Virus record (IMG/VR): IMGVR_UViG_3300032373_001208
Coordinates: 1-43,586 of that record
Strand: one strand, 5' to 3'
Origin: a virus
Lineage: Duplodnaviria; Caudoviricetes
Length of the DNA: 43,586 nucleotides
The notes beneath the pieces were generated by a model, which saw nothing but the letters and a program-made list of their open reading frames with translations, ran no database searches and was not told where the DNA came from. Below, piece after piece: positions 2,116-42,983 of this stretch; position 1 is the first letter of the stretch, and each line of letters starts with the position of its first letter. A program made the translations under genes and the position numbers.

Positions 2116-2202
2116 GCCGGGATGGCGGAACTGGTAGACGCAAGGGACTTAAAATCCCTCGAAAGCAATTTCGTGCGGGTTCGACTCCCGCTCCCGGTAC
2201 CA
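2116..2202 (+). tRNA. tRNA-Leu(TAA), prophage integration target
   Basis: GCCGGGA/TCCCGGT acceptor stem, anticodon arm GGGACTTAAAATCCC, long variable arm, encoded CCA; 87 nt. Confidence 0.96.
2176..2202 (+). repeat. attL core (27 bp)
   Basis: CGGGTTCGACTCCCGCTCCCGGTACCA, identical to 42957..42983; equals the 3' end of tRNA-Leu. Confidence 0.95.
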
Positions 2203-2205
2203 TTA

Positions 2206-2233
2206 CAAGCCCTTGATATTCAAGGGCTTTTTT
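2206..2233 (+). terminator. phage-supplied hairpin/terminator after tRNA-Leu, overlapping an IHF-consensus site
   Basis: AAGCCCTTGA-TAT-TCAAGGGCTT plus T-run; minus strand 2218..2206 reads TATCAAGGGCTTG = WATCAANNNNTTR. Confidence 0.65.
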
Positions 2234-2250
2234 GTTTATGGTGGGTGTAC

Positions 2251-2305
2251 CAGTGCCCAGATAGTGACTATTCATAGAAAAACCCCGTGGCCACACAGTG
2301 ACCAA
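2251..2305 (+). promoter_or_regulatory. integrase arm-type binding sites (left)
   Basis: CAGTGCCCAGATAGTGACTA (2251-2270) and CCGTGGCCACACAGTGACCAA (2285-2305) resemble CAGTGCCCAAACAGTGACCAA at 42819-42839. Confidence 0.7.
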
Positions 2306-3441
2306 GCTTCTTTTATTTTCTCACCAGCGTGCGGATACATGTCTGGCATCCATCGCGCATATTTTTTATAAAGCACACTTGGGTCGGTATGCCCAAGTTG
2401 CCGCGCCAGCCATACTGGGTGTTCGCCTGCTGAAAGCATCATCGATGCATAAGTGTGACGCGTCTGATATGGCTCTCTGTATGAAATATTGTGAGACTTT
2501 TCCAGCGCTTTCATGATTGGATTCCAATATTTCCAAACCGCACCATCACCAGACCATGGCTTATTGGTGTGTGGGTTGTGAAATACCCTGTCTGCATTTT
2601 CATAGGTGTATTCTTTTTGTGCTTCTAGCGCCTGAAGCGCTGGCTTGAATAAGTCCACACTACGCACACCAGCTGCCGTTTTTGGCGTTGTGATCACACC
2701 ATTGGTAAAGTTGCGGCGCACATGCACCCCCCCTTTTGCCCAATCTATATCCGTCCAACGTAAAGCAATAAGCTCACCCGTGCGCAGCCCTGTGAAAATA
2801 GCAAATTGCAAATAATTGCGCAGCTGATCAGGGAAGCTTGCCAAAATCGTGCGCTGCTCTTGAGTTGAAAAGGGTAATGGTTCGCGGGTGATGATGGGTA
2901 GATTGCTGATAATATCCATAGGGTTTACGGGGATAAGCTCATGCTCATAAGCTTCCTTAATCATGCCGCGCAATGGGATAAGGATATTATTCACTCTTTT
3001 ATTGCCACATGTTTGGCTGCGAATAAATTCGCGCACCTTCTGTACATTCAAATCCACCAGGCGCACATCTTTAAAAAATGGAACCAACTGCCCTTCTATG
3101 GCCTGCAAGTTTGTTTTTGCTGTGGACACCTTCCAAGCGCGCTCATTGTTTGCACCATCTTTAGGGGCCTTTGATACATAATAATCCATCAAAGCTTTTT
3201 CCACGGTTGTATTACCAGCCTTGGCATTGCCAAACAAGTTTGCAGATCGGGTATTGCTATCTGGGAAATAGTCTCTGAACACAAAATGACCAAGGCCAAT
3301 ATCATATGCAATTTTAGCATCCATGCCCTCGGCATGTTTCATGTTCTTTTTGGTTGGTGGCAGATTTAAAGTCTCTCTGCAGCGTACCCCTTTATAATAA
3401 AACTGAATCTGAATTTTATCACCACGCGCTTTCACACTCAT
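2272..3441 (-). CDS. int: phage tyrosine integrase with N-terminal arm-binding domain
   Basis: IQIQFYYKGVRCRETL arm-binding N-terminus; TGLRTGEL, PKT, YQTRHTYAS, LGH and Y catalytic motifs; next to attL. Confidence 0.95.
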   Translation of the reverse strand: MSVKARGDKIQIQFYYKGVRCRETLNLPPTKKNMKHAEGMDAKIAYDIGLGHFVFRDYFPDSNTRSANLFGNAKAGNTTVEKALMDYYVSKAPKDGANNERAWKVSTAKTNLQAIEGQLVPFFKDVRLVDLNVQKVREFIRSQTCGNKRVNNILIPLRGMIKEAYEHELIPVNPMDIISNLPIITREPLPFSTQEQRTILASFPDQLRNYLQFAIFTGLRTGELIALRWTDIDWAKGGVHVRRNFTNGVITTPKTAAGVRSVDLFKPALQALEAQKEYTYENADRVFHNPHTNKPWSGDGAVWKYWNPIMKALEKSHNISYREPYQTRHTYASMMLSAGEHPVWLARQLGHTDPSVLYKKYARWMPDMYPHAGEKIKEAWSLCGHGVFL

Positions 3442-3632
3442 GACGGGCCCCCTTCAATCCAACGCTCAATGGCAGGCACACAATAGTAAATGGTGTTTTC
3501 ATCTGGTGGTTGTCTCCAATGAATATTCTGCAACCACTTGCCCTGCACACGCTTGGCATTGATTGCCGCCACTGTAAGCCCGGTCATTTCTGCCAGCTTA
3601 GATGCAACCACGTATTTGGCTGCTTTGATCAT
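3438..3632 (-). CDS. xis: excisionase / recombination directionality factor
   Basis: small basic wHTH-like protein (GKWLQNIHW...IYYCVPAIERWIEG); ATGA overlap with int start; GGAGG RBS before ATG 3632. Confidence 0.75.
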   Translation of the reverse strand: MIKAAKYVVASKLAEMTGLTVAAINAKRVQGKWLQNIHWRQPPDENTIYYCVPAIERWIEGGPS

Positions 3633-3730
3633 ACTGCCAACCTCCCCTGCGACTGGAATCTGCACATCGTTTGTTCATCCATATGGCTTCAATACTCTTT
3701 TTACCAATATCAAACAGAGGCTGTGAATCA

Positions 3731-3886
3731 TCACACATCATTGAACACCCACTCGTCATCCACTTTAGTATAGTTGTGAGCCGCCATTATTTCATCCAAC
3801 TGACCAAAGCTTATATCGAACATTACACACACATCCTGGTCACTTGCGCCACTTTCTATTTCCATTACTACATAGGCTTCATTCAT
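3731..3886 (-). CDS. hypothetical protein (51 aa, not in ORF track)
   Basis: manual translation MNEAYVVMEIESGASDQDVCVMFDISFGQLDEIMAAHNYTKVDDEWVFNDV; GGAG RBS; co-oriented with the operon. Confidence 0.5.
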   Translation of the reverse strand: MNEAYVVMEIESGASDQDVCVMFDISFGQLDEIMAAHNYTKVDDEWVFNDV

Positions 3887-3967
3887 AAACTTCTCCCATC
3901 GTTACATTATCTAATTTAGCTAATTTTTCACCAGTGATTTCCTCAGCAACTGATATTGTTTTATCAC

Positions 3968-4234
3968 TCATGCCGCTACCCCTGCTTGGAAAGTTTCTAG
4001 GCCCCAAAACTTGGGGGCTTCGATGCGTTTTTTTGGTTCTTTTGCCATGCGTTTGGCTTGCTCGGCTTCTTTGATTTGTTTGCGTATAGCGCGAATGCCT
4101 GACCATACCACTGGCACGGTCACCCCGTATTTTTTAGCAATGCGTTGCGGGCTAAATCCCTTGTTGTGCATGCGCATATATGCCAAGCGTCGCTGTCTAA
4201 TTTCTTGAAGTTCCTTTTTTGACCATCTAGCCAT
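3968..4234 (-). CDS. putative HTH DNA-binding protein
   Basis: GFSPQRIAKKYGVTVPVVWSGI helix-turn-helix pattern; basic. Confidence 0.6.
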   Translation of the reverse strand: MARWSKKELQEIRQRRLAYMRMHNKGFSPQRIAKKYGVTVPVVWSGIRAIRKQIKEAEQAKRMAKEPKKRIEAPKFWGLETFQAGVAA

Positions 4235-4421
4235 GATTGCCTCCTACATTGTGTTGCTGTGTTGCTGTTTCAAACCAATGGCGGGTGATGAATCCACCGC
4301 CCAAAAGTAATAAACCGTAATAAATGATTGCCGATGCTTTCCACACCAAAAACGCACACGCCACCACGAATAAGCCAAGCAAGGCCACCGCGTGGGTGAT
4401 GTTGTTCCAGTGGGTTTTCAT
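4227..4421 (-). CDS. small membrane protein
   Basis: two hydrophobic segments; start MKTHW at 4421 overlaps the methyltransferase stop (ATGA). Confidence 0.55.
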   Translation of the reverse strand: MKTHWNNITHAVALLGLFVVACAFLVWKASAIIYYGLLLLGGGFITRHWFETATQQHNVGGNHG

Positions 4422-5911
4422 GCAGCTGCTTCCATCGGCTCTGTGACCAATTGGCTCACATAGTTTGCCGACACCAAAGCCTTGGCGAAATGCGGAGGCA
4501 CTGAGTTGCCACACATGCGAACCTGCGCTGTCTTGGTCAGTTTTAGGCCCTGTTCTGCATCATCACCAATGATGTAATTGTCATCAAATCCTTGGGCGGT
4601 GAATAGCTCTCGTGGTTGCATCATGCGCATGCCAATATCAACAATGGCGTACTCAACACCTTCAACGATGACCAAACCAAATCGCTCTTTGGTGGTTATA
4701 GTGTGCAAAGGTTCATCCACGAGCTGAGCGCCATCTGTGCCGTAATACTTAATAAGAAAAGCCCTTACCTCGGCATGGTGTGAACCACTCGATGTGATGG
4801 TTCTCAAAGGCTCATCAACGCCTTGACCAATCGCATTGTTTCGCAAGGTAACCAAATTAGTCGTTACCAAACTATTATGATCCACAGATGTGACCGTGTG
4901 CAGCGGGTCGCTCACTGGTGAACCAACAACACCTGTATAATGTTTAGCTATCAAAGCTGATACTAAAGCGAAATGACCACCCTTAACTTGAGCGCATTGT
5001 GTGCGCAGTGGTGAGTTTGCATCCATATTGCGTTGGTTTGAAGCGTTGGCATGCTCAGTGATAAAAGGAACTATTGAAGAGACAATAAAAGGCTTTTCAC
5101 AATCAATCACATACCGCTGAATTCCTTTTGCAATCCTGCGCAACGTGTTTTCTGCTAGTGGTTTCTTACGCTCAAAAATTGAAGGGCATGGGAGGCTAAA
5201 ATCAATGCAATCGGCTGCTGTTTTCCATGGCAATAGCTTGCCTGATTTCACTGCATCGCCTTTAGGGTCACCATGAGTTACTTCTGGCCATACAATCGGC
5301 AAGCCATCACACCTAGCAATTAGAAACAAGCGCTTACGAATTGTTGGTGCACCATAATCACAGGCACGAAGCTCACGGTGTTCAACAACATAACCAAGGC
5401 GCTCTAATGCTCTACAGAATGACTTAAAAGTGTGTCCTTTTCGTGTCGGGTTGGGAATAAAATTACCCTTGCCATCAGAAACCAATGGGCCCCATGTTAC
5501 AAACTCTCCAACATTTTCAAGCGTGATCAGGCGCGCCTTTGTAACTGCCGCCCAGCGAACACCAACCCAAGCCAAACCACGGATATTCTTTTCTACTGGT
5601 TTGCCACCCTTCGCTTTACTGAAGTGTTTGCAGTCTGGTGAAAGATGAACAGCGCCCACCGGACGACCTCGGGTAACTTCTCTTGGGTTTACATCCCAAA
5701 CAGACTCACACAAGTGCATAGTGTGCGGGTGATTAATGGCATGCATTGCCAAGGCTTCTGCATCATGGTTAATTGCCACATCAACATGTTTCCCTGTTGC
5801 CTGGTAGAATCCTTCTGACCAACCGCCGCCGCCTGCAAAATTATCAATCGCCATTTCACCAAAGTTTATAGGCATCTGAGTTGGTTTATGGGTCACGTGA
5901 ATATTCTTCAT
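4418..5911 (-). CDS. phage DNA (cytosine-5) methyltransferase
   Basis: motif I DNFAGGGG, IV SPDC, VI LENV, VIII PTIRKRLF, X MCGNSVPP; repeated PL(R/H)T(I/V)T units in the variable region. Confidence 0.92.
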   Translation of the reverse strand: MKNIHVTHKPTQMPINFGEMAIDNFAGGGGWSEGFYQATGKHVDVAINHDAEALAMHAINHPHTMHLCESVWDVNPREVTRGRPVGAVHLSPDCKHFSKAKGGKPVEKNIRGLAWVGVRWAAVTKARLITLENVGEFVTWGPLVSDGKGNFIPNPTRKGHTFKSFCRALERLGYVVEHRELRACDYGAPTIRKRLFLIARCDGLPIVWPEVTHGDPKGDAVKSGKLLPWKTAADCIDFSLPCPSIFERKKPLAENTLRRIAKGIQRYVIDCEKPFIVSSIVPFITEHANASNQRNMDANSPLRTQCAQVKGGHFALVSALIAKHYTGVVGSPVSDPLHTVTSVDHNSLVTTNLVTLRNNAIGQGVDEPLRTITSSGSHHAEVRAFLIKYYGTDGAQLVDEPLHTITTKERFGLVIVEGVEYAIVDIGMRMMQPRELFTAQGFDDNYIIGDDAEQGLKLTKTAQVRMCGNSVPPHFAKALVSANYVSQLVTEPMEAAA

Positions 5912-6144
5912 ATGAAGCTCACCAAAGCCCTAAAGTTTGTTGTTTTGATATGTATAAGCGTCGTCTTTTGTCTGCTGAGGATGTCGTTACTTCGACTACC
6001 CCCCCCCCTCACAAGTCTTGAGAGCGCATGGCGCACTGAGCCTATAGTTAGCCCCTGACGTTTGGCGATAAAGCTAGGCGAATATTTTCGATTAAAGCGC
6101 ATGCTGGTGAAAACCTTGGTCAATACGGAATTGTCGATGTTCAT
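5908..6144 (-). CDS. winged-helix DNA-binding protein, probably frameshifted at a G10 tract
   Basis: HTH SPSFIAKRQGLTIGSVRHALSRLVRGG; the alternative frame after the tract gives VVEVTTSSADKRRRLYISK (MarR-like wing). Confidence 0.6.
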   Translation of the reverse strand: MNIDNSVLTKVFTSMRFNRKYSPSFIAKRQGLTIGSVRHALSRLVRGGGSRSNDILSRQKTTLIHIKTTNFRALVSFI

Positions 6145-6500
6145 TCATTGCCTCCGATTGCTTGCGTGGCAAAGGTTTCGCTTTGTTGGATTTGCTCTGC
6201 CACTTCGTGGTCGCCGTAGTCGCCTGCGAATGCTGGGTCGCGGTATTTGTAGACTTGCCACAAATAAAAGGCATTGGTGGCAGTCATGAGGATGGCAGCA
6301 TAACCAGACCATGTTTGGGTGAGCGATGGGTAGTAGAAGATATTCCACAGCCCCCAGCTGGTGAAAAACAGGCTGGTGATGATAGACACGCCCATGATGC
6401 GCTTGGTGCGGTGCGCCTCTAAAATGGAAGGCAACACGGCAAACGCGCCAAACAACTCAAACAGCGCATTCATGATATCCATGTGATCAACCGCAAACAT
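6141..6500 (-). CDS. PQ-loop / SemiSWEET-like three-helix membrane protein
   Basis: LPSILEAHRTKRIMGVS pattern (LP-x-I...K...G-x-S) and three hydrophobic helices. Confidence 0.6.
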   Translation of the reverse strand: MFAVDHMDIMNALFELFGAFAVLPSILEAHRTKRIMGVSIITSLFFTSWGLWNIFYYPSLTQTWSGYAAILMTATNAFYLWQVYKYRDPAFAGDYGDHEVAEQIQQSETFATQAIGGNE

Positions 6501-7089
6501 CGAGGCTGCTCCATACGCGTAGAAATTCAGCTTTGGCTTGTTCTGGGAAAAATGCAGCGACTAGGTGGAACCACCCTGCCCCACCCTCAAATGCGCGGGT
6601 GTCTGGGATGCCCCATTTCTCGCCCTGTGATGGCATCAAAGCCTCGGCTTCAAGCTTGAGCGCGTGGTTGTCGGCTTCTTTGACCAAATCCAAATCAACC
6701 ATGCAAATATCAATGCCCAAGGCCATGCAGATATGCACCTGCCAGTTGGTTTCCAAATCTTTGTAGCCCTTCATTTCTTTGGCATATTTGAGGGGGCGCG
6801 TAATATCATGCACATATGCCTCAGCAGAATCATGCAGCAATGCCCATTTCAATGTTTCGGTGTTTGCATTGTGTAGGCGAACCAAGCGATACACCAAAAG
6901 CGAATGCTGGGCCACGGTATAAAGCTGGCGGCAATGCCCTGCAAAACGACAGCAATGGCTTAATGCGTGGGCGATGTCTTCAATGCACACATCGGCATGA
7001 TCAGGCTCAGTAGGATAAATGCGGCGGCCTGTGGTTGATTCAAACCATGTTGGCGTGTGTGTTTGTGGATACAAGGCGGTTTCAAGCAT
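6487..7089 (-). CDS. HD-domain phosphohydrolase (YfbR/YfdR-like 5'-deoxynucleotidase)
   Basis: IEDIAHALS..CRFAGH...YTVAQHS, ALLHDSAEAYVHDI and VKEAD motifs; GGAGG RBS before ATG 7089. Confidence 0.88.
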   Translation of the reverse strand: MLETALYPQTHTPTWFESTTGRRIYPTEPDHADVCIEDIAHALSHCCRFAGHCRQLYTVAQHSLLVYRLVRLHNANTETLKWALLHDSAEAYVHDITRPLKYAKEMKGYKDLETNWQVHICMALGIDICMVDLDLVKEADNHALKLEAEALMPSQGEKWGIPDTRAFEGGAGWFHLVAAFFPEQAKAEFLRVWSSLDVCG

Positions 7090-7291
7090 GGTTTGCCTCC
7101 CATGATGGTTGTTTGATGATGCGGTGTTTGTTGCAGTGGCAGCATGTTTGGTGATGGGTTGTTTTTTGCCCCACCTTGCCAGTTGACCAATCAAGGTATT
7201 CATGGACACCAAGCAAACACCCGATGCGGTTGAAGGCTGTGATAAGCAGAAAAATCAAAGCGCGAAGGAAGTTGACGATTGCGGGTTTCAT
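7082..7291 (-). CDS. hypothetical protein
   Basis: 69 aa; ATGA overlap with the upstream gene; CxxGxH...CCHC pattern. Confidence 0.5.
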   Translation of the reverse strand: MKPAIVNFLRALIFLLITAFNRIGCLLGVHEYLDWSTGKVGQKTTHHQTCCHCNKHRIIKQPSWEANHA

Positions 7292-7803
7292 GATTCCCCC
7301 TCAATTCCTTTTAACATCACACAGCCGCGCTCAAGTAGTTCGTAGAGTTGTTGGGCTGCTTCTTTGCGTTCGTTGCGTGAAAGGTCGGTCCCGTTGGGTG
7401 AGTCTGGGTCTGTGGCTTTGGCGATGACGCTCATCACATCACCAAACTCTTTGCCAAGCTTCACAGCTTCGCGGTTGATCGCTTCTGGCTGTGGTAAATC
7501 TTTGGGTTTGTTGAATACCAGCCGACCCAAGCCATGCTCGAGGTTGTCCAGTGATGCGGTGTCCATGCCAGCAAGCAAATTGCGCATCCAGTGTCTTAAA
7601 AAAGGCTCTGCCTCTTGGTTTGGATCAAGGCGTTTTTTAAAAGTAGTCTCGTCCGTTTCTGCGATTCTTGCGGCGTGGGCTGTGCCCATGGGTTTGATGG
7701 TTCTATCCCCTACCGTGTAACCGCCCGGATGGCTCACGACCGACTTGTGATATAGGTGGAACGAGTGCTCCACCACCGCGTCTGCCTGCATACTATTACA
7801 CAT
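7288..7803 (-). CDS. phage regulatory protein, CII/YmfL-like
   Basis: HTH-like N-part, then KEFGDVMSVIAKATDPDS..G..LSRNERK typical of this family; downstream of cro. Confidence 0.6.
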   Translation of the reverse strand: MCNSMQADAVVEHSFHLYHKSVVSHPGGYTVGDRTIKPMGTAHAARIAETDETTFKKRLDPNQEAEPFLRHWMRNLLAGMDTASLDNLEHGLGRLVFNKPKDLPQPEAINREAVKLGKEFGDVMSVIAKATDPDSPNGTDLSRNERKEAAQQLYELLERGCVMLKGIEGES

Positions 7804-8413
7804 GGGAAGCTTCTTCCTCTTTCTTGGCGTTGACCTCTTTTACATGTGTGTTCCACTCATCAAAGGCTTTTTGGACTTCCCACTCTTTGACCTCTTCCAT
7901 ATGGGCAGTTGGCTTCCACAGCAGTGAATCCATATTCGAGCATCCTGTGTCAGGGTCATTCACATATTCCGCGAGCTTCTCAGGGTCTTCGTCATACCAA
8001 GGCACCCCAACAAATGCGACGATAGGCGATGATGGTATGATGTTTAATGTTGGCTGGCACAAATACCTGCCTGTTATGATGGTATGACCTTTAAGCCCAA
8101 CTAGTGATAAGTGGTCATCTTCATTTGAAGTAACGACAGCCTTAAGTTTGAGATGAAGCGCCTTTCCTTCTTTGGTTGTTTGTTTTGGGTACCATCCATC
8201 CCAAGCCTTTTTAAAAACTTTTCTGTCGGGGACGGTTGCAAACTGAATTGCAACCAGTTTTTTATTCCTTTGATAATACCCTTGCCCATTATTAACATCT
8301 TTCAGGATATTTCGATATTCTTGCTCAGCAGCCTTGTTTGTTTCACGGCTTGCTTTGATGGCATCAATTAATGGACCATCTGTTACCTTGAAATAACGTG
8401 TATATTTATTCAT
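7796..8413 (-). CDS. hypothetical early phage protein
   Basis: 205 aa; GAGGAGG RBS before MNKYTRY; C-terminal EVKEWEVQKAFDEWN resembles lambdoid Eac-like early proteins (tentative). Confidence 0.6.
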   Translation of the reverse strand: MNKYTRYFKVTDGPLIDAIKASRETNKAAEQEYRNILKDVNNGQGYYQRNKKLVAIQFATVPDRKVFKKAWDGWYPKQTTKEGKALHLKLKAVVTSNEDDHLSLVGLKGHTIITGRYLCQPTLNIIPSSPIVAFVGVPWYDEDPEKLAEYVNDPDTGCSNMDSLLWKPTAHMEEVKEWEVQKAFDEWNTHVKEVNAKKEEEASHV

Positions 8414-9206
8414 GGGAAATTGCCTCCTCATTACCCATTGCGGTGGGTAAACCGTTTTCGTTAGCGTTTGCTGCATGTTGCTTTTGATTCTCTTCTTCCA
8501 GCCATTGGGCAAACAGGTCATCGTTGATGCTGTTGCTCAAAATGGAGGTGATGGTGGATGTCGCCCAAATCTTGCGGCCATTGCGCGTTTTGAAGGGGCT
8601 GTCGCTCATTTTGTTGGCAATGGCAGTGGGCCCAAGCCCATCTTGCTTGCAGCCCCAAATCAGGCGCAAACCTTTTTGCTCAATAGCGTGTGGCAAACAC
8701 TGTTTGTTGACATATTTCCAGCCATAAGGCGCATAAAAACTATGCTGTTGTCCGTTTTCTTTCTTATGCGCAAGCACTGTTTTGGTGCGCTCACCAGTGC
8801 GCATGCGTTCACATTCGGCATCGATAAGGTCATAAGCAAAAATGCGGCGGCCACGTGCAGTGCTCACATCAGCATTGGTGCCACCCATTTCAATAAAGAA
8901 CATGCTCACACCAAGCTTTTCAAATTCATCAGCTGTTTGCAGCCCTTCGATGGTGTTGCGAAACATGCGGTCGATTTTACAGGTCACAAAAGCTTCAACC
9001 TCGCCATTTCTGCACATATCAATCAGCGCAACCATAGCTGGGCGGCTCTTGATGGCCTTGGCGCTGCTGGCATCTTCAAGAAAATCCACCAACTCAAGAT
9101 CATACATAGCGCAATAACGCTCAATCATATCCTTCTGGGCTTCAATGGAGCCGCCAAACTGCTCTTGTTTGCTGGTGCTCACCCGCACATATCCGATGGT
9201 TTTCAT
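8406..9206 (-). CDS. serine recombinase (resolvase catalytic domain plus recombinase DNA-binding domain)
   Basis: IGYVRVSTSKQ catalytic serine motif, KIDRMFRN, APYGW and TRNGRKIWATSTITSILSN. Confidence 0.92.
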   Translation of the reverse strand: MKTIGYVRVSTSKQEQFGGSIEAQKDMIERYCAMYDLELVDFLEDASSAKAIKSRPAMVALIDMCRNGEVEAFVTCKIDRMFRNTIEGLQTADEFEKLGVSMFFIEMGGTNADVSTARGRRIFAYDLIDAECERMRTGERTKTVLAHKKENGQQHSFYAPYGWKYVNKQCLPHAIEQKGLRLIWGCKQDGLGPTAIANKMSDSPFKTRNGRKIWATSTITSILSNSINDDLFAQWLEEENQKQHAANANENGLPTAMGNEEAISHE

Positions 9207-9928: not shown

Positions 9929-9960
9929 ATCATCATTCTCTCTTGTGGTTTCTTAGTGTT

Positions 9961-10014: not shown

Positions 10015-10275
10015 TCATGCCGCCTCCTTGGCTGCCATGTATTGGCCAGCACCTGGGCAAATTTCCAAGGGGCTGATTTCATGCTGAAGTACTTCGGCAA
10101 TTTTGGCGGCGTGTTGTGTCTTGCCAGTCCATTCAGATGCAGGCATGCCGCGACGAATCCAGTTGGAGAAGAGTTCAATGCTAAATCCACAGGCATTGCA
10201 GAAGTCGGTACGCGTGCGTCCATCAAAATGTTTGGCAACCAGCGCGTTAATTTTTTTGATTGTTATCTCGTCCAT
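10015..10275 (-). CDS. Cro-like protein (copy 2)
   Basis: 86 aa HTH (FCNACGFSIELFSNWIRRGMP); C-terminus nearly identical to copy 1. Confidence 0.75.
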   Translation of the reverse strand: MDEITIKKINALVAKHFDGRTRTDFCNACGFSIELFSNWIRRGMPASEWTGKTQHAAKIAEVLQHEISPLEICPGAGQYMAAKEAA

Positions 10276-10385
10276 GGCATGTCTCGTAGGACACTCCTAT
10301 GCTCTTTTTTTGTAAGCTTGGCAATTTCAACACTGCTCATGGATTGCTGTTGCCCATGACCGTTCAGGCGAAAGAAATTAATCAT
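10263..10385 (-). pseudogene. truncated Rha-family antirepressor fragment (40 aa, not in ORF track)
   Basis: MINFFRLNGHGQQQSMSSVEIAKLTKKEHRSVLRDMPWTR aligns with MSSMEVAELTTKRHDHVIRD of 9203..9928; ATGA overlap with the cro1 stop. Confidence 0.75.
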
Positions 10386-10645
10386 GCCGCCCCCTTGGCT
10401 GCCATGTATTGTCCAGCACCTGGGCAAAGCTCAATAGGAGCAACATCGCCATTGCCCATTGCTTTGATGAGGTCGCAAATGACTTGCGCGTATTTGGTGG
10501 TGCCCAGCCATTCAGAATTGGGTAATGCTTGGCGAGTGATCCATGCGTGGGGGGCAAATCGTCCAATAGCCATACCCTTTGCGGTGCATGCTCTGGCAAT
10601 CGTTGCTGCCCCACCTGCTTTTTCTATTGCTGTTTTAATGTCCAT
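10382..10645 (-). CDS. Cro-like protein (copy 1)
   Basis: IKTAIEKAGGAATIARAC...W..RQALP pattern of Cro/YdaS-like proteins; divergent from the CI-like gene. Confidence 0.8.
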   Translation of the reverse strand: MDIKTAIEKAGGAATIARACTAKGMAIGRFAPHAWITRQALPNSEWLGTTKYAQVICDLIKAMGNGDVAPIELCPGAGQYMAAKGAA

Positions 10646-10718
10646 GGCGCAACACTAAACAAAGTGTTCAGTTCCTGTCAACACATTTTGTGCAGTTCGG
10701 AGTTAAACATTATGTGTA
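10646..10718. promoter_or_regulatory. cI/cro switch: lytic promoter and three operators
   Basis: minus-strand TTGACA (10681-10676)-18bp-TAGTGT (10657-10652), 6 nt before the cro ATG; three A(A/C)ACA-N3-TGT(T/G) palindromes starting at 10656, 10680 and 10704 (24-bp period). Confidence 0.75.
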
Positions 10719-11527
10719 ATGATTCGGAAATGAGTCAGTTTGAACGTATGCTTAAAGAAATGGATGCGCTTAAAATATCCAAAGCTGAAATGGCTCGCCG
10801 TTTAGAAGTAAGCGACCAGAGGTTTGGTAATTGGAAAAGACGCGGCGCTATTCCTAAAGAGAAACTGCCTGCTGCAGCCAAGGTGTTGAGGGTTAATTTA
10901 CACTATCTCATGACAGGTGAAGGTGCTGCCAGAAAACTATCCACCATGCAGCGTAGAATCTCTGATATGATGCTGCGCAATGATATTGATGCGCATGATT
11001 TAGAGATGTTGACGCGCAATAAGGTGAGTGCGGCTGTGATTCAAAGCTGGCTCAATGGTGAAGCAGAGCTATCCGATACAGAGCTTACCATTGTCGCACC
11101 ACATTTGGGTATGCCTGCTGATTACTTCCGCACAGGGGTAAACAGCATCAAACAGATGGATGGGCCAAGCCGCAAGGTGCTTGAGCTTCCCGAAGGCTAT
11201 GAGCAGGCATCACATCTTGCGCAAACTTTATCAAAAGCCGTTATTCAAATGTCGAGCAATGGGCAATTACCCGACGAAAAACTAGAGGCCATGATGAATC
11301 TGCTTAATATCCCTGCACCTGTAGCCGCTCAGAAGCTAAAAATAACAAAAGCTCAGTTACGCAAAGATGCTGAAGCAGAGGTGGCAAAGCGTGAAAAATT
11401 AGGCAAGCGCAAGCTCTCTGCAGAAGAAAAAGAGCATTTCATTCAGTTTATTATGGATACATCACTCAGCCACCCTGCTCTTGAGTTAGATGAATCCGAA
11501 AGCAGCTGGCAAGAGCAGAGCAACTGA
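10712..11527 (+). CDS. CI-like repressor with two tandem XRE-type HTH domains and no S24 peptidase domain (start could be 10730)
   Basis: HTH1 ISKAEMARRLEVSDQRFGNWKRRG...LHYLMTGEG; HTH2 VSAAVIQSWLNGEAEL...DYFRTG; divergent from cro. Confidence 0.8.
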   Translation: MCNDSEMSQFERMLKEMDALKISKAEMARRLEVSDQRFGNWKRRGAIPKEKLPAAAKVLRVNLHYLMTGEGAARKLSTMQRRISDMMLRNDIDAHDLEMLTRNKVSAAVIQSWLNGEAELSDTELTIVAPHLGMPADYFRTGVNSIKQMDGPSRKVLELPEGYEQASHLAQTLSKAVIQMSSNGQLPDEKLEAMMNLLNIPAPVAAQKLKITKAQLRKDAEAEVAKREKLGKRKLSAEEKEHFIQFIMDTSLSHPALELDESESSWQEQSN

Positions 11528-34628: not shown

Positions 34629-34631
34629 GTC

Positions 34632-35045
34632 ATGCGATTTCCAATTGTCATTGAACCAGGTGATGCAACGACAGCTTATGGCGTGATTGTGCCAGACCTT
34701 GCTGGCTGCTTTTCTGCTGGTGATACCATGGATGAAGCCATGGATAATGCATCTGAAGCGATTGCTCTATATCTCGAAGAGAGCCTTCTTGAGGGCGAGG
34801 CTTTGCCTCAGGTGGGAAGCCTTGAAAACCACCGTAGCAACCCTGATTATGAAGGATGGATTTGGGCAATGGTGGATGTTGACCTAAGCAAACTTGAAAG
34901 CGAAGTGAAACGTGTAAACATTTCAGTGCCCGCTCGTGTGCTTGGTTTGGTGGATATTGCAGCGCATCAAGCTGGAAGAAACCGCAGCCAATTCCTTTAC
35001 GAATCTGCTGTACTTCGTATTGAGCGTGAGCTTCCTTGCCCTTGA
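34632..35045 (+). CDS. hicB: HicB antitoxin
   Basis: YGVIVPDLAGCFSAGDTMDEA and the RVNISVP...RSQFL ribbon-helix-helix. Confidence 0.95.
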   Translation: MRFPIVIEPGDATTAYGVIVPDLAGCFSAGDTMDEAMDNASEAIALYLEESLLEGEALPQVGSLENHRSNPDYEGWIWAMVDVDLSKLESEVKRVNISVPARVLGLVDIAAHQAGRNRSQFLYESAVLRIERELPCP

Positions 35046-35959: not shown

Positions 35960-36004
35960 GATAGGCTCCTTTGTTTTTTTGAATAGACACTTTTTGAATA
36001 AGTA

Positions 36005-36077
36005 TCGGGCGCTTCAAAACAGCCAAAGAACTGCTACCGGTATTCCCCTAAGGTCTTTTATTCCCAGTAACACCCGA
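36005..36077 (-). ncRNA. C4/CI/isrK-like antisense immunity RNA
   Basis: closing stem UCGGGUGU/GCGCCCGA with internal hairpins; segment CUUUGG-CUG-UUUUGAA is complementary to targets at 36133..36148 and 35969..35983. Confidence 0.7.
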
Positions 36078-36160
36078 ATTCAAATCTGAATTCTAGGCAC
36101 AAAAAATCCAAGGTTTGCGACCTTGGTTGTCGCTTTGAGTGTTTTGAAGCACTTAAAGCA

Positions 36161-36190
36161 ACTTTAGTCATTCACTTGCGCACTTGTCAA
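36161..36190 (-). promoter_or_regulatory. sigma70 promoter of the antisense-RNA/Bro operon
   Basis: TTGACA-18bp-TAAAGT on the minus strand. Confidence 0.65.
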
Positions 36191-36237
36191 ATCTCTTCTA
36201 CTATATCTCTGCGAAGTGAGGGGGGGGGCATCCAGCT

Positions 36238-36939: not shown

Positions 36940-37065
36940 CTTCATTTTTGCTCCTGTTTTCGTTTGGCTTGATAGTAGGCTCTGGTTTTGCGAAGCAACT
37001 CGGCTTCGCGTTTTTTCTTTTGTTTGCTCATTTTAATCATCAAAGGGGTTGGCGGCTCTAGCATT

Positions 37066-37326
37066 TCACCACCTCCGCTCTCGAATAATATTGATCATGG
37101 TGACCGCAAATGAGCCACGTCCCCTCCGACGAACCCGCACATAGTTGCCCTTCTCTGTTTTGATGGGTTCGCGGGTGGTGTATTTGGGATTGTGGGCGCG
37201 CCAATAGGTGTTTACCACATTGCCCTGAAAACCCGTGCGCCGCTGCATCTCTTCGGGATTGTAATGCCCTCGCACCACAATCCGCGCAGATGTTTCCAAC
37301 AAAATCTCACCTTCGCGGAAGGTCAT
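37066..37326 (-). CDS. hypothetical protein
   Basis: 86 aa, ATGA-coupled; C-terminal GRGSFAVT motif. Confidence 0.6.
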   Translation of the reverse strand: MTFREGEILLETSARIVVRGHYNPEEMQRRTGFQGNVVNTYWRAHNPKYTTREPIKTEKGNYVRVRRRGRGSFAVTMINIIRERRW

Positions 37327-37541
37327 TTGTTTACTCGGAATTCATAAGGCGTTAATGGCAACCTTCTGATTACACCATCAGCTTCCAGCCTTTCAATCAC
37401 CCTTGAAGCCCTATTGTATCCAACCATCAAGTGCCTCTGCAAAAATGATGTGCCAAAGGAGCCTTGTACCACACGGCCAATAAGCTCTACAGCTCTTTCA
37501 TAGGCTTCGTCATCTGCGCGTTGATGCTCTTCTACACTCAT
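37323..37541 (-). CDS. stand-alone FtsK gamma-domain protein
   Basis: DDEAYERAVELI...TSFLQRHLMVGYNRASRVIERLEADGVI matches the FtsK-gamma winged-helix signature. Confidence 0.88.
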   Translation of the reverse strand: MSVEEHQRADDEAYERAVELIGRVVQGSFGTSFLQRHLMVGYNRASRVIERLEADGVIRRLPLTPYEFRVNK

Positions 37542-37717
37542 AAAAAGTGAACCCCTCTTTTAGAGTCTAAAAAACAACCTTGAAGTAGTTTGTACAGCTT
37601 ACGCCCACCTTCATGCTTGTTTTCAATTGGCTGCGGCATGCTGTTGATAATATCTAACGCATCTTTCCTGCTTATTTTCACCGTAACTGATTCAACTTCT
37701 AGTTGTATCTCACTCAT
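37538..37717 (-). CDS. hypothetical protein (59 aa, not in ORF track)
   Basis: MSEIQLEVESVTVKISRKDALDII...; GAGGAG RBS; ATGA overlaps at both ends. Confidence 0.6.
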   Translation of the reverse strand: MSEIQLEVESVTVKISRKDALDIINSMPQPIENKHEGGRKLYKLLQGCFLDSKRGVHFL

Positions 37718-38370
37718 GACTCAGGCTCCTCATACAATGTTTTTATGCGTAGTTTATCGTTGCCAACCCTTAGCATTTCGCTGAGGTCTTCTGGCATGAT
37801 GATAATGGGCACGCTGATGGTGCTTAGGTAGTTTTTGCCTTCTGGTTTCCATTTCCACACGTCAGCTTTGAATGCATCGATGGCTGCTTGCAAATTAACC
37901 CACGATGCCAACTGCTCTGGTGTGCAGCCATAAGTCTTTTCGATGTATTCAAATTCTTTACAGGCTCTCTCTGCGGCTTCTCTCAATTCTTTGCTGTTGC
38001 CAAACATCACAGGCTCTTGCTCTACTGGCTCGGCTTGTAGGGCGGCTTTGAGTCCAATCATTTCATAATCACAATGAAAATCATGGCTCCATAAAACACC
38101 GTCTTCATCACAGTCATTCTCATCAAGCTTATCGGCAGAAGGTCGCTTTTGTAGGTTTGTTTGCTTTGCTTCATGTGTAATCTTGCCTACAACTATATTT
38201 TCAACACCTGCATCCCATTCACCATCAAGATAAGTAGATATTGATTCCTTAGCGTCATCAAGTGCCTCTGCCTCTGTTTTAAATGTTTCAAAATACCCTG
38301 CGTCAGAGTCATATACAAAATATCCATCCTCCATCGTTTTCTCTACTGCTTCTCTCAATTCTTTACTCAT
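37714..38370 (-). CDS. mosaic hypothetical phage protein (Ea22/Eaa-like modular type)
   Basis: GAGGTGG RBS before MSKELRE; internal repeat SKELREA; AEPVEQEPV linker. Confidence 0.6.
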   Translation of the reverse strand: MSKELREAVEKTMEDGYFVYDSDAGYFETFKTEAEALDDAKESISTYLDGEWDAGVENIVVGKITHEAKQTNLQKRPSADKLDENDCDEDGVLWSHDFHCDYEMIGLKAALQAEPVEQEPVMFGNSKELREAAERACKEFEYIEKTYGCTPEQLASWVNLQAAIDAFKADVWKWKPEGKNYLSTISVPIIIMPEDLSEMLRVGNDKLRIKTLYEEPES

Positions 38371-38377
38371 AACCACC

Positions 38378-38560
38378 TCATTTTTTCTCAATCACTTTCC
38401 CATCTACAACTTCAATCACCACACTGGCACCAAGCTGATCACGTAGGGCTTTGTAGCCTTCGCTTTGCATAAACTCGGCAAGCGCTGGTGCATCCCGCTG
38501 AATCGCTGCCCACGCTTTTCGCTTTTGCGCATCATCCAACGTGGCCAGAACAACTTTCAC
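38378..38560 (-). CDS. hypothetical protein
   Basis: 60 aa; GTGA overlap; W..IQRDAPALAEFM motif. Confidence 0.55.
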   Translation of the reverse strand: MKVVLATLDDAQKRKAWAAIQRDAPALAEFMQSEGYKALRDQLGASVVIEVVDGKVIEKK

Positions 38561-38691
38561 GATTTAAGCAGTATTTCCCTCTGATATACTGGGATAAACC
38601 CAAGCAACCAAAATGTTTCAACTTTGACGCTGTATGAAGGGCGACGCGATGATGTCTCCTTTACTTTCAAAACATAAACTGTCTTTTTCAT
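38557..38691 (-). CDS. hypothetical protein (44 aa, not in ORF track)
   Basis: MKKTVYVLKVKETSSRRPSYSVKVETFWLLGFIPVYQREILLKS; overlaps its neighbours at both ends. Confidence 0.55.
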   Translation of the reverse strand: MKKTVYVLKVKETSSRRPSYSVKVETFWLLGFIPVYQREILLKS

Positions 38692-39422
38692 GTTCCCTCT
38701 CCTGTTTCGCTGATAACATCTGCATCCACCACCTCGGCATCATCAAAGGATGGCACCTGCATATTTTGCGGAATCATGCGGCTCATTTGTCTTGTCATTT
38801 CTGCAGCTGTGAGCTGCGTTTCTTCATCGGTGATGGCTTTGGCTTTAGACTGTGGTGTAGCCAAAAACTCGGGCAGATTGATGCCCAGCTTGTCCATAAG
38901 TTTGATGAGGATGTTGATTTGCGGGTTTTCAAACTCTTTGGTGCCTACAATGTCGCCATCGGCTCCAAATACATCTTGAGATACCCACATGCCCTTGTCT
39001 TGAATGTCTTTGAATGCCTGTTGAATCAGGGCGACATTTTGACCCATTAACAATGCGGCAAGACCCTGCAAAGCTTCCATGTCGCCTTGTTGCGCAGAAA
39101 CAATGGCACTACCAGCCTCTTCAATCACTGACCAATCAATCACATCAAGGCATCTGCCCCCTGCTTTGGTTTTTTGCTCTTTGATAAAGGGGCATGTGTC
39201 ATATTTGGGGCAAGTGGTCTGGCATGGCTTGCCTTGCATGGCTGACATGGAGGCTTTGGCTGACATGCCATGTTTCCAAGCATTCATGGATGATGCTTTT
39301 TTGCCTTTATCTGTTTTGGGGCCTGTGGCGTGTTTGCGCGCTTTCAGCGAGGCATCTTGGCGCTGCTTGATTTGGGCAGGGCTTAGTGGCTTTTTGTTTT
39401 TCTTAGGCTTTGCCATGATCAC
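38688..39422 (-). CDS. putative terminase small subunit / DNA packaging protein
   Basis: ATGPKTDKGKKASSMNAWKHG motif, Cys cluster, and a KEFENPQINILIKL segment similar to TerS proteins. Confidence 0.55.
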   Translation of the reverse strand: MIMAKPKKNKKPLSPAQIKQRQDASLKARKHATGPKTDKGKKASSMNAWKHGMSAKASMSAMQGKPCQTTCPKYDTCPFIKEQKTKAGGRCLDVIDWSVIEEAGSAIVSAQQGDMEALQGLAALLMGQNVALIQQAFKDIQDKGMWVSQDVFGADGDIVGTKEFENPQINILIKLMDKLGINLPEFLATPQSKAKAITDEETQLTAAEMTRQMSRMIPQNMQVPSFDDAEVVDADVISETGEGT

Positions 39423-39739
39423 TCAACCTCTCTGGCGCTGTTTCTGATGATTTCGCGCACTCTGTTTTCTGAAATGTTGTGCTTGGCGGCGAATAACGCT
39501 GTGTCATCACCACCTTTGCAGTGGGCAATGATGTCGGCATCGCGAAATGGCTTAGCAAGGCCTTTAAAGAAGTTTTCTGCGGTCTGAACGTAGAACTCGC
39601 CACCAATGCCGCCTGAGAGGGCATCTAGCATGTCAGAAAGCGCCTCTGCGCCATGTCTGCGACCGATAGATACCAAACCCGTAGCATCTTCTGCCGATGC
39701 CTGAAGTAGTTCGTTTCGTTGTGCCATGATGTTGGTCAT
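39419..39739 (-). CDS. Mor/C-family late transcription activator
   Basis: GGEFYV...RDADII...AAKHNISENRVREII Mor-family signature. Confidence 0.75.
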   Translation of the reverse strand: MTNIMAQRNELLQASAEDATGLVSIGRRHGAEALSDMLDALSGGIGGEFYVQTAENFFKGLAKPFRDADIIAHCKGGDDTALFAAKHNISENRVREIIRNSAREVE

Positions 39740-39740
39740 A

Positions 39741-40673
39741 TCAGTTCCCCAAGATGGATTGCCAGTGGGCTGTGCCCAGGCGTGATTTTTGTAAGTGTCT
39801 TTCTGAAATGGCGATGTAGCGCATTGTTGTTTCAATGCTTGAGTGGCCCATTAACAAGGCAATCTCTTGAACGCCAATGCCGTGGTCGTATAACTCGGTG
39901 GCGTAGGTGCTGCGCAACTTGTGAAGGAAAACATCACCTTTAAGGCCCACACGCTTGGAAACGCGCTTGATCACATCATGCATGCCACGAATGCCCATGC
40001 GGCCACCACTTGGCTGATGACGATTGCCATGGAAGCTGATGAAAAAGCTGTCTTCGCTGTCAGCTGCATACATTTGGCGAACCACAAGCCATTTGGTCAA
40101 CTCGCCAACAATTGGGCCCTCAAATGGAATCACGCGCTGTTTGGCACCCTTGCCAATCACGTGGACACGTCCTGTGCGGTGGGCAAGCGTAATGCGATGA
40201 ATCGTTAAGTTTGCCATTTCTTCGCGGCGCATGCCCGTGGCATAAAACAACATCAAAATGCAGCGGTCGCGCACTGTGGTTGCAGTTTCATTCTCTGCGA
40301 TTGAGAACATATCTCGCAATTCGGAATGGCTAAACTTCTGGGCAGCTGTTTTGCTCACTTTAGGTGTGGGCACACCATCGCATGGATTACTTGGCAGCTT
40401 GTCTGTATCAACCAGCCAGGCACACACGCTACGCAATGCAGATAAGCGGCTGGCTCTGGTGGCGTTTGAATGATTGCCTCGACTGACAACCAAATACTTC
40501 ATCCATTCTTCGACTGTGTTCTTGCTCAATGGAAGACCATTGCTTTGAACCCAACCAAAGAACATGCGCGCAACTTCGCAATACTTATGCGCAGCACTTC
40601 GGCTGCAGCCACGTGTAATGACATGATAATCCGTGAATAAAGACGAATGCTGGGGTGTCCACGCGAAATTCAT
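39741..40673 (-). CDS. XerC/D-like tyrosine recombinase (start could be 40712)
   Basis: SAM-like N-domain (ATRASRLSALRS); catalytic R (TGMRREE), K (GKGAKQR), HKLR, MGH and Y (TMRY) all present. Confidence 0.9.
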   Translation of the reverse strand: MNFAWTPQHSSLFTDYHVITRGCSRSAAHKYCEVARMFFGWVQSNGLPLSKNTVEEWMKYLVVSRGNHSNATRASRLSALRSVCAWLVDTDKLPSNPCDGVPTPKVSKTAAQKFSHSELRDMFSIAENETATTVRDRCILMLFYATGMRREEMANLTIHRITLAHRTGRVHVIGKGAKQRVIPFEGPIVGELTKWLVVRQMYAADSEDSFFISFHGNRHQPSGGRMGIRGMHDVIKRVSKRVGLKGDVFLHKLRSTYATELYDHGIGVQEIALLMGHSSIETTMRYIAISERHLQKSRLGTAHWQSILGN

Positions 40674-41038
40674 GCCGCAGGCTCCCAAATCCAAAAGTTG
40701 AAAATCGCCCATTTATTACGAGCCACATAGTGTGCCCGCTTCGCTTTGTGGTACTGAGCTTTTGACGGGGGGTACCCCTTAGCGTACACGGTGGAACCAC
40801 CAAGGCACACAACATACAATAAAAACAAACACTTAGAACAGCGCCTAGTAAACACGCTCCGACCCTTCCGACTCTGTTTTTGGCAAATTTCTTTACCAAA
40901 AGAACATAGGTTGCCACATAGGCACAACCTACCCCCTATATACAACAACACATCAAGCCCTTTCGCTCCGACTTCCAAGGTGTATGAACAGAACCTAATT
41001 ACCGTGCAAGCTATATAAACAAAGGGAAAAACAAGCAT
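40670..41038 (-). CDS. hypothetical ORF, possibly bridging a cis-acting site
   Basis: TGATG and ATGA overlaps at both ends but atypical composition; contains palindromes and direct repeats. Confidence 0.4.
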   Translation of the reverse strand: MLVFPFVYIACTVIRFCSYTLEVGAKGLDVLLYIGGRLCLCGNLCSFGKEICQKQSRKGRSVFTRRCSKCLFLLYVVCLGGSTVYAKGYPPSKAQYHKAKRAHYVARNKWAIFNFWIWEPAA

Positions 41039-41769
41039 CAGCGTTGCCCTCTAGCCGATGGCCAGTTGAATACAACTTGGGCCATATCATTGCGTAATCG
41101 GTCCACAACTCTTGGGTGAAATACCTTCGTTGATAGATGCTCCATGCCCTTATTGCTGCAGATAATCGTTGGCAGCTCATAATCAAGGCGCTCAGCCAAA
41201 ATGTCTGACAAGATTTGGCAGGTATATTCACCCAGTGGGCTTGCCGCTACTTCATCTACAACTAAAAAAGGTTTCCTTTTGAAGTTTTTAACGTATTCCT
41301 CACGACTAATCTTGCTATCAGGGTTCATCGCATCACGAATACCACGATCAATATCATTTGCTGTGCAGTAGTAACCAGGTGATTTGCCATGCTTCACGAA
41401 TTCAAACAGCAAAATTGCAGCAAGCGTTGTCTTGCCTGTGCCAAACCCACCATCTCTCGATGATTCACCAACAAACAATAGGCTAGAAATATCACCATCA
41501 AAAAAACGCCGCGCATATTTAAGCGCTCTGCGATGCCCATCATGTTCTTGCCAAAAATCGGCAAAGGTTAACCCATGATATCTTGGTGCAAGCCCCATGC
41601 TCTCACACTGTGCCACCAATGCTTTTTCACGTTGGGCCAACTGTCGCTCACACGATTCACACTTATCACCAAAATAGTCGCCATGATAGCTGCAAACTTT
41701 TGTCTCCAAATCGGCTGGCTTGAAATGGTGCCTGTGTTTTTCAGGAATAAGATCTTGAATTGATTGCAT
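41038..41769 (-). CDS. DnaC/IstB-like helicase loader ATPase
   Basis: C..HG zinc region, PRY...TF, GFGTGKT Walker A, LVVDEV Walker B, PTIICSN and RVVDRL. Confidence 0.9.
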   Translation of the reverse strand: MQSIQDLIPEKHRHHFKPADLETKVCSYHGDYFGDKCESCERQLAQREKALVAQCESMGLAPRYHGLTFADFWQEHDGHRRALKYARRFFDGDISSLLFVGESSRDGGFGTGKTTLAAILLFEFVKHGKSPGYYCTANDIDRGIRDAMNPDSKISREEYVKNFKRKPFLVVDEVAASPLGEYTCQILSDILAERLDYELPTIICSNKGMEHLSTKVFHPRVVDRLRNDMAQVVFNWPSARGQR

Positions 41770-42695
41770 TAGAAATCATCTCCTGTTTGAGCAGTTCTTC
41801 TTTCTTGAAAAGCGTTGTATCCACCAGATAAAATTTTCTTGGTGTTAGCTGGATTAATGAGGAAAGAGATGTTCATAGTGAATGGATCCTTTTGTTTTCC
41901 TTTTTTCCTGCCTGTTAAAAAATCACTCTCACTGGCTTTGCTAAAAATATTTAGCCAATAATCAGGGGTATTGATTTCAAGAGCAGATTTTAAAGCACTC
42001 CATATTGTTGACTCTGATGTGATCACTAAATCAGTTTTTGATTTGTTGGGGAACAACTCACAGAACCGATTGAATAAAAGAATGATATCGCGCTCACTCT
42101 CTGTGTGTGTGTGTGTAATATCTGTACCTTCTGTACACTCTGTACACTCTGTAGAGCGCGCGGGCTCGCGTGGGCGCGTTACGTGCGCGTGAGTTTCGGG
42201 AACGGTTGCAAACGGTTTGTTTAACGGTTCGGGAACGGTTAAAGAATCGGCTAGTTTTCTAAGCTTATCAAGGGTCTTTGAATAATATGGTTTATCTTTA
42301 TCAACACTGGTTTTGTAATCTTGGAAGATTGAGCCCATTACCAATTGGGCAACCTGTGGAGGTAGGTTTGATGCATTTTTCATGGCTCCAATCCAGATGT
42401 TTGGATTGGCAGCTTGCCACATTGAAAACTGCGGCAAAAAGATGATGTTATACTCTGGCCACCACACTGCTTTCTCACCAAGTGCGGCGATTGCCTTTGC
42501 CACCTTTTTCTTTCTGAAAAGTCCATCGATGCCAGCTAATTCAGCCAAGCGCTCTTGCGATGCAAACATGACGCCGCAAAGGTTCATTTCAGAAGATGTA
42601 TATATGGATGAATAGAGCGCGATTGATTGACATGAGTTGAGGCCTGAAGAAAAACCAACTGGCATGCTTCTGTAGCGGCATTGATTTGTGCTCAT
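41769..42695 (-). CDS. phage replication initiator (O/DnaD-like)
   Basis: upstream of the DnaC-like gene with TAATG overlap; internal iteron cluster; C-terminal SDFLTG...FLINPAN..KILSGGY motif. Confidence 0.8.
   Translation of the reverse strand: MSTNQCRYRSMPVGFSSGLNSCQSIALYSSIYTSSEMNLCGVMFASQERLAELAGIDGLFRKKKVAKAIAALGEKAVWWPEYNIIFLPQFSMWQAANPNIWIGAMKNASNLPPQVAQLVMGSIFQDYKTSVDKDKPYYSKTLDKLRKLADSLTVPEPLNKPFATVPETHAHVTRPREPARSTECTECTEGTDITHTHTESERDIILLFNRFCELFPNKSKTDLVITSESTIWSALKSALEINTPDYWLNIFSKASESDFLTGRKKGKQKDPFTMNISFLINPANTKKILSGGYNAFQERRTAQTGDDF
42095..42245. repeat. iteron cluster / putative phage replication origin
   Basis: (TG)7, four 9-bp TCTGTA(C/G)nn repeats (42121-42156), a GC-rich block, and four AACGGTT repeats (42201, 42211, 42223, 42234). 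Confidence 0.7.
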
Positions 42696-42805
42696 ACGCC
42701 AAACCCCCATCCGCTGTCATCGTCATCGAATGGATCAAAGAAGTTTTGCAGTTCTTTTAAAACATAAACAACCAAGCCTAATATGAAAAAGATTACTTTC
42801 TTCAT
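42692..42805 (-). CDS. small membrane-anchored protein (37 aa, not in ORF track)
   Basis: MKKVIFFILGLVVYVLKELQNFFDPFDDDDSGWGFGV; its stop overlaps the initiator ATG (ATGA). Confidence 0.55.
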   Translation of the reverse strand: MKKVIFFILGLVVYVLKELQNFFDPFDDDDSGWGFGV

Positions 42806-42818
42806 AGCAGAACTATCC

Positions 42819-42839
42819 CAGTGCCCAAACAGTGACCAA
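42819..42839 (+). promoter_or_regulatory. integrase arm-type binding sites (right)
   Basis: CAGTGCCCAAACAGTGACCAA, 18/21 identical to 2285..2305. Confidence 0.7.
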
Positions 42840-42956
42840 AAGCCACGCTCATAGGCGTATTTTCAAGCACTTTGGCACCCTGGTTAGATATGCGACTTGT
42901 GCGCGTTTCCCTATATTTTAATTGGGTTCTTGCTGTTCCTGACGTTGGCGCATGTT

Positions 42957-42983
42957 CGGGTTCGACTCCCGCTCCCGGTACCA
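42957..42983 (+). repeat. attR core (27 bp)
   Basis: identical to 2176..2202. Confidence 0.95.

Follow-up and report, generated by a model that had tools for sequence, protein, structure and literature searches.

Recombination reportedly cuts a reading frame or an operon at the attachment site (att) in several integrating elements, as is said of the integrases of Mx8 and SSV1, the repressor of BPs and the 'split-operon' idea for P2. In the haloarchaeal pleolipovirus SNJ2, circularisation is reported to create orf26, an open reading frame (ORF) across attP after int, which is translated and in which a nonsense mutation blocks replication (PMC13107129). In the conjugative element Tn916, replication and transfer genes are reported to be silent in the integrated state, and only the circle allows their transcription from Porf7 through att; a terminator shields them from promoters of the host, and read-through depends on a cis-acting antiterminator RNA (canT) rather than on a reading frame (PMC11658703). 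Here we analyse a tailed-phage stretch of 43,586 nucleotides (nt), IMG/VR record IMGVR_UViG_3300032373_001208, which as a whole is called the window. It holds a prophage in which the rejoining of attL and attR opens an 84-codon frame between int and the replication operon. We consider it probable that this is a selected reading frame across attP, serving as a translation bridge rather than encoding a protein that matters as such.

The window contains a complete-looking 40.8-kilobase (kb) prophage inside tRNA-Leu(TAA), with the features expected of a prophage that a tyrosine integrase has placed in a tRNA gene: the tRNA 3'-end is repeated at both ends, the tRNA is restored, and int and xis are adjacent. 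The features on which the frame depends are the following:

2176..2202, no strand assigned: attL core at the int end, 27 base pairs (bp), the 3' end of the restored tRNA-Leu(TAA) at 2116-2202
42957..42983, no strand assigned: attR core at the rep end, the second copy of the 27-bp direct repeat
3438..3632, minus strand: excisionase (xis), DUF1233, over the PF06806 cut-off and matching phrog_539, ATGA-coupled to int; the start at 3632 was picked from likeness to relatives
2272..3441, minus strand: tyrosine integrase (Int) of the DUF3596/Arm-DNA-binding type, 389 amino acids (aa), phrog_1 at E 2.6e-57
2176..2275, minus strand: int-side half of the bridge ORF, 33 codons, as read in the joined frame
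42802..42983, minus strand: rep-side half of the bridge ORF, as read in the joined frame, its stop forming the second ATGA overlap
42692..42805, minus strand: 37-aa ORF with a hydrophobic start and an acidic end, the second link of the chain
41769..42695, minus strand: likely replication initiator (rep), 308 aa, with its own Shine-Dalgarno (SD) sequence, phrog_19658 at E 5.9e-8

When the two ends were rejoined, the minus strand read 255 nt, that is 84 codons and a stop, from the ATG at 2275 to the stop at 42804-42802, reproducing exactly the open frame with 4-nt overlaps at both ends that an earlier, sequence-only reading of this DNA had claimed. Three successive ATGA overlaps link the int stop to the bridge start (2275), the bridge stop to the start of the 37-aa ORF (42805) and the stop of the latter to the rep start (42695). 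As in SNJ2, the ORF made by circularisation contains attP and directly follows int, and each junction has the -4 overlap of a termination-reinitiation pair. Such coupling needs overlaps or very short gaps (PMC10666635) and normally joins two functional genes, whereas here a filler ORF would span DNA serving recombination. The strength of the SD sequences was -9.1 kcal/mol for rep, -5.7 kcal/mol for the bridge and -4.0 kcal/mol for the 37-aa ORF, the latter two being weak.

That the frame exists only on the excised circle, as had been proposed, is true of its joined form; both halves are already ORFs in the prophage. On the int side the ATG at 2275 reads 58 codons into antisense tRNA and comes to a dead end at 2099, and on the rep side 77 codons lead from an ATG in host DNA (43035; weak SD, -2.2 kcal/mol) to the stop that the bridge also uses. 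The other two minus-strand frames contain 5 stops each across the 247 nt between int and the 37-aa ORF. Under a null model of dinucleotide composition the frame stayed open in 0.021-0.023 of the trials, a value that, taken alone, is no more than suggestive.

The position of attP within the operon gives this frame its context. On the circle, co-oriented and tightly overlapping genes lead from int to the replication gene, as in SNJ2, and attP lies between xis-int and a rep-DnaC-Mor block; these genes share one strand and diverge from the repressor gene:

10529..11527, plus strand: CI-like repressor, divergent from the leftward early operon, over the PF07022 cut-off
4418..5911, minus strand: DNA methyltransferase, adjoining rep in three related phage regions
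41038..41769, minus strand: DnaC-like helicase loader, phrog_50 at E 3.8e-32, overlapping rep by -1
39419..39739, minus strand: likely Mor-type late activator, downstream in the same chain, PF08765 at E 0.016 and thus under the cut-off, which its homologue in the related region L286 passes

Leftward from the repressor run genes for an antirepressor, a serine recombinase, a CII-like protein, an HD phosphatase, the DNA methyltransferase, Xis and Int; beyond attP, on the same strand of the circle, come the 37-aa ORF, the likely initiator, the DnaC-like loader, an XerC-like recombinase, the likely Mor activator and later the head and tail genes. A greedy chain from 9928 through attP to 36942 had gaps of -8 to +10 at 31 of 31 junctions, 26 of them exactly -1, -4 or -8, compared with 29 of 77 when the same procedure was run on the antisense strand and 208 of 751 when it was run on shuffles. 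Only one large gap would interrupt the chain, the 247 nt at attP, and this is the stretch that the bridge fills. Since translational coupling is lost over gaps of about 20 nt (PMC10666635), a gap of this size would break it. All five rep homologues start at the same Met as the one at 42695; rep itself had no Pfam match and no named family in the Atlas.

In the related phage regions L286, L287 and L298 the methyltransferase abuts rep directly (GTG at -4 or ATG at +2 in L286, ATGA in the other two), which suggests that an xis-int-attP cassette was inserted into a continuous early operon. On the simplest reading of these comparisons, the cassette of the window likely split an operon that had formerly been continuous.

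L298 also provides an attP that required no joining. The tailed phage from which this contig derives is a relative by its terminase (67%), portal (56%), repressor (43%) and Rep (52%), and its integrase is 22% identical to Int of the window. A lone antisense tRNA 3' half, read as tRNA-Lys, lies between int and the methyltransferase gene, with phage genes on both sides and without a full tRNA on the contig; the site is a natural attP. A bridge of 94 codons covers it, beginning at -4 of the int stop (SD -7.9 kcal/mol) and sharing an ATGA at its end with the methyltransferase gene, which in turn overlaps rep; the other frames hold 2 and 3 stops (P 0.021). The bridge peptide had no similarity to any of 16 other bridges at E 0.01. 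Judged by these comparisons, the bridge of L298 is of independent origin.

Relatives that share the integrase family were collected through an alignment of the 12 closest integrases, which yielded 239 loci. The int end could be mapped in 235, of which 18, including two duplicates, had a repeat of at least 15 nt within the locus; the 217 without such a repeat were set aside at this stage. With G002 (the same as L084), added from two contigs, and L288 and L289, taken from 10 further regions of which the 8 without a second att end were excluded, the set came to 19 distinct elements. It thus represents elements of 4-8 kb with both ends on one contig, none picked for its frame. For all of them the crossover was placed at the T-loop, as is general for tRNA-targeting integrases. 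Relatives were recovered by alignment-based searches; scanning viral contigs with Int, Rep or the XerC-like protein singly yielded none.

Translation is able to run from int across attP in 18 of the 19 rebuilt relatives, and the gene reached is a Pfam Rep in 16 of these 18. This is achieved in three ways. Twelve elements have a separate bridge ORF, 39-114 codons long, with 4-13 nt of overlap between its stop and the start that follows; ten of these lead directly to a Pfam Rep, and that of L109 leads to a 69-aa ORF followed by a 521-aa ORF with a weak Rep_1 match. In three elements integrated in tRNA-Leu (L081, L086 and G002; Int 53-56%) an ATG at -11 of the int stop is in frame over attP into a GPA-type Rep of 557-560 aa, and L081 holds the frame with Rep even though it crosses the core in a different phase. 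In the remaining three, from tRNA-Met (L082, L288 and L289), Int itself extends over attP to overlap the Rep start. This last group resembles Mx8, and only there does the att core fall within the integrase ORF, as is said of Mx8 and SSV1; in the window the int stop falls 69 nt short of the core, which therefore lies outside that ORF. Both other sense frames contained stops in 16 of 16 elements, and in 3 of 3 in a second set. Diverged relatives would be expected to keep the open frame and both overlaps if the sequence-only reading were right, and this was found in the 18 rebuilt attP sites and in the natural attP of L298. As a separate observation, these tRNA- or tmRNA-integrating elements of 4-8 kb combine a DUF3596 Int with one of three rolling-circle Rep types (GPA, Phage_CRI or REP_ORF2-G2P), and no description of such a family was among the papers that a literature search returned.

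Fixed spacing between arm sites and core, together with motifs resembling the site of integration host factor (IHF), might supply starts and stops by chance and att geometry, without selection on translation. The window, G002 and G003 share a distance of 48 nt from arm to core. In the sense group an IHF-like motif encloses both the end of int and the beginning of the bridge, stops occur in two frames of the rep start context, and the chance for a single element is 0.02-0.28. Because ten of the passing elements form one homologous group, we used one element per lineage, each at its least favourable P; the joint chance over five lineages was then about 1e-6 (0.067 x 0.125 x 0.277 x 0.023 x 0.021), assuming an independence that is firm only for L298. 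Moreover, 25 of 36 int stops have ATG or GTG at the beginning of the four free positions of the IHF-like motif, as against 3 of 20 elsewhere. No such frame occurs in the lambdoid controls: among 8 GenBank phages whose integrases are distant (33-42%), of which only 2 have an annotated attP, a bridge is absent throughout. In six, no start codon overlaps the stop of int; in a seventh, a TTG opens a frame of 55 codons that heads for convergent genes, and in the eighth attP is preceded by an ordinary gene. Two of the eight have a co-oriented gene 285-373 nt further on, yet no bridge. This account is therefore already disfavoured, and we regard it as very improbable. Most of the cases with ATG or GTG at these positions, it may be added, carry an AGG motif shortly before it.

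What appears to be conserved among the relatives is a frame and not a protein sequence, as judged by substitution patterns. In the four alignable bridges (6 pairs) the ratio of nonsynonymous to synonymous substitution rates (dN/dS) was 0.56-1.14, compared with 0.07-0.12 for Rep; a 10-nt insertion in two of the four inflates dN somewhat. After this insertion the bridge still terminates on the rep start, although two frames meet stops in the start context at that point. Depending on the element, one and the same att DNA encodes a free ORF, the first part of Rep or the last part of Int. These data bear on the possibility that the bridge is a functional small protein made only after excision, the overlaps being ordinary operon packing. 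Such a role was proposed for SNJ2 ORF26, and its translation and the replication block caused by the nonsense mutation (PMC13107129) speak for it, as do the 28-77% identity kept by the bridges of the sense-orientation group and the cysteine motif retained in the Int tails that L082, L288 and L289 gain from attP. Yet a dN/dS near 1, the use of one DNA for three kinds of product, the phase switch of L081 through the core and the dissimilarity of the L298 bridge all argue against a conserved protein, residues held in common lie on conserved att DNA, and the bridge halves of the window matched no family (PHROGs for both, Pfam for the rep-side ORF). We consider a protein function unlikely; the pattern points to continuity of translation as what is kept. 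The tails of about 88 residues in L082, L288 and L289, which keep a cysteine-pair motif, are possibly a metal-binding extension of Int present only on the circle.

Alternatively, the frame may be an inherited remnant, selected in the small rolling-circle elements that supplied the cassette, with rep in the window using its own promoter and SD. The window bridge aligns with the attP-derived Rep head of G002 and L086 (26-37%), and rep has a good SD. A sibling prophage, L161, keeps the int-side half of the bridge with 5 substitutions, 3 of them synonymous, and no indel, too few changes to be informative either way. Its attR half rests on a contig from run X2 that is identical to the window across 41500-42983, the same five substitutions being present at the attL of that run. 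In run X2 contigs break off at each of the four sides of the core, a pattern expected from coexisting attB and attP, and an attP-bridging record was absent among the matches listed; neither was counted as evidence. On the other hand, both ATGA junctions of the window differ from those of its closest relatives, whose bridges start at -11 or -14 of the int stop, and were thus likely made anew. L298, from the same phage group, arrived at the same solution with a different cassette, and a promoter scan of the minus strand from 42695 to 43400, albeit a weak one, gave no promoter-like consensus site. A mere remnant thus seems about as doubtful to us as a functional protein.

For the favoured reading, a selected bridge for translation, further features around attP come into play:

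2251..2304, minus strand: arm-type-like repeats on the int side (2304-2296, 2270-2263 and 2259-2251), putative, from motif matches only
42819..42838, minus strand: arm-type-like repeat pair on the rep side, putative, from motif matches only
2206..2229, no strand assigned: hairpin, terminator-like for the plus-strand tRNA operon and without a U-run on the minus strand
42991..43025, no strand assigned: host hairpin with an A-run and a T-run just beyond attR, folding at -16.6 kcal/mol

An exact match to what we take to be the IHF consensus lies at 2218-2206 inside the hairpin 2206-2229. The arm and IHF sites that the sequence-only reading placed inside the frame are hence present as motif matches and no further than that; int of relatives ends in the same arm-like motif. 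The hairpin at 42991-43025, which is absent from the output of a consensus scan, is predicted to be a two-way terminator that would insulate rep in the prophage. As an observation in its own right, the two bridge junctions (2304-2272 and 42838-42802) are built alike, with an arm-like repeat pair, a G-run and then the ATGA overlap, and resemble a duplicated module; Int of the window ends 4 codons beyond most close relatives.

We propose the following sequence of events. An xis-int-attP cassette would have entered an early operon that relatives keep continuous. In the lysogen the promoter under repressor control would no longer reach rep and the late activator, and the hairpin beyond attR would keep transcription from the host out of them. 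Upon induction Xis and Int would be made first, and excision would then rejoin the operon. Ribosomes finishing int may reinitiate at the ATG at 2275, pass through the DNA of the arm, IHF and core sites and start again first at 42805 and then at 42695, and the bridge would thereby sustain reinitiation, prevent polarity, or both, so that replication would follow only after excision. The switch itself would be the DNA rearrangement, and the bridge would let the rejoined operon be read through the recombination site. Both translational coupling and the excision switch are thus inferred. The ribosome-carrying role put forward earlier is borne out in part, by the conservation of the frame and by the operon context, that is the 31 of 31 tight junctions and the direct coupling of rep to the methyltransferase gene in relatives.

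Several points weigh against this proposal. The promoter scan is a weak test for an internal rep promoter, and rep, having its own SD (-9.1), may do without ribosomes brought by the bridge. With 58 C and 62 G, the 247-nt gap shows no richness in C that would point to a Rho site. Among the relatives, L172 fails (21 codons; its int carries an internal stop), L094 and L177 depend on a T-loop crossover to pass, the next gene of L085 is ambiguous and without a family, and the homology of ten passing elements means that the count overstates independence. The attR-side sequence of the window and its 37-aa ORF lack any diverged relative for comparison; the sole match of this ORF among 1.84 billion representatives was itself. 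It may be a second filler link or a small membrane peptide. Folding of the mRNA near the starts at 42805 and 42695 was insignificant (z -1.30 and -0.26).

The best named relatives of Int belong to Mariprofundus and Ghiorsea (55%), which makes a zetaproteobacterium the likely host. Also encoded in the early operon are the XerC-like tyrosine recombinase (39741-40673) and the serine recombinase (8406-9206), both kept in L286 and G134. L286 itself has a different integrase at 1-715, in the opposite orientation and next to a fragment resembling a tRNA where the contig ends, and its early operon is unsplit. A 47-bp direct repeat (96%; 10015-10061 and 10382-10428) ends two adjacent ORFs of 86-87 aa beside the repressor. 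Repeats within rep at 42100-42250, comprising a TGTG run and short direct and inverted repeats, may mark a replication origin. A gene for a HicB-like antitoxin (34632-35045, plus strand) opposes the direction of the lytic genes.

Compared with the described systems, the basic design is already known from SNJ2 orf26 and from Tn916. The likeness to SNJ2 comprises the attP-containing ORF right after int and a tightly packed operon leading to Rep, an arrangement that its authors read as a switch from lysogeny to replication; it differs in concerning an archaeal rolling-circle virus in which the operon start was mapped inside int and ORF26 was interpreted as a toxin-like protein (PMC13107129). The words 'translational coupling' and 'polar' have 0 occurrences in the main text of that paper (PMC13107129). 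The window element, by contrast, belongs to a bacterial tailed phage, has tailed-phage genes and a DnaC-associated initiator without a rolling-circle Pfam family, has a whole repressor-controlled operon split by att, and its bridge protein is not conserved; it works like SNJ2 and is not a member of that group. The novelty that the sequence-only reading claimed for the bridge was too strong, as SNJ2 orf26 is a published ORF that excision creates across attP (PMC13107129). A literature search, mostly of titles and abstract openings and reaching few subscription papers, found no description of a coupling bridge across attP. In the Mx8, SSV1 and BPs cases the end or activity of one protein is reportedly altered, whereas the importance of the present frame seems to lie in its connection to the gene that follows. 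What is new are tailed phages whose early lytic operon is split by att, the independent origins of the solution, and evidence for continuity of translation as the conserved trait.

This trait, seemingly the one under selection, was reached in three ways and with unrelated integrases. We give even chances to the broader proposal that filler ORFs over attP are a general, repeatedly invented design of tailed phages and small integrating replicons, free in sequence and making excision a hard gate for replication and late genes, and that SNJ2 orf26 is the same device, essential through polarity and not through its protein. Being present on the circle alone, the bridge escapes annotation, and the comparison yields a simple screen for such elements as well as a testable rereading of orf26. 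Many temperate phages can begin replication before excising. If the proposed gate is real, a phage in which att separates the genes for replication and the late activator from their promoter would have to excise first, which would affect the timing of induction and the packaging of host DNA.

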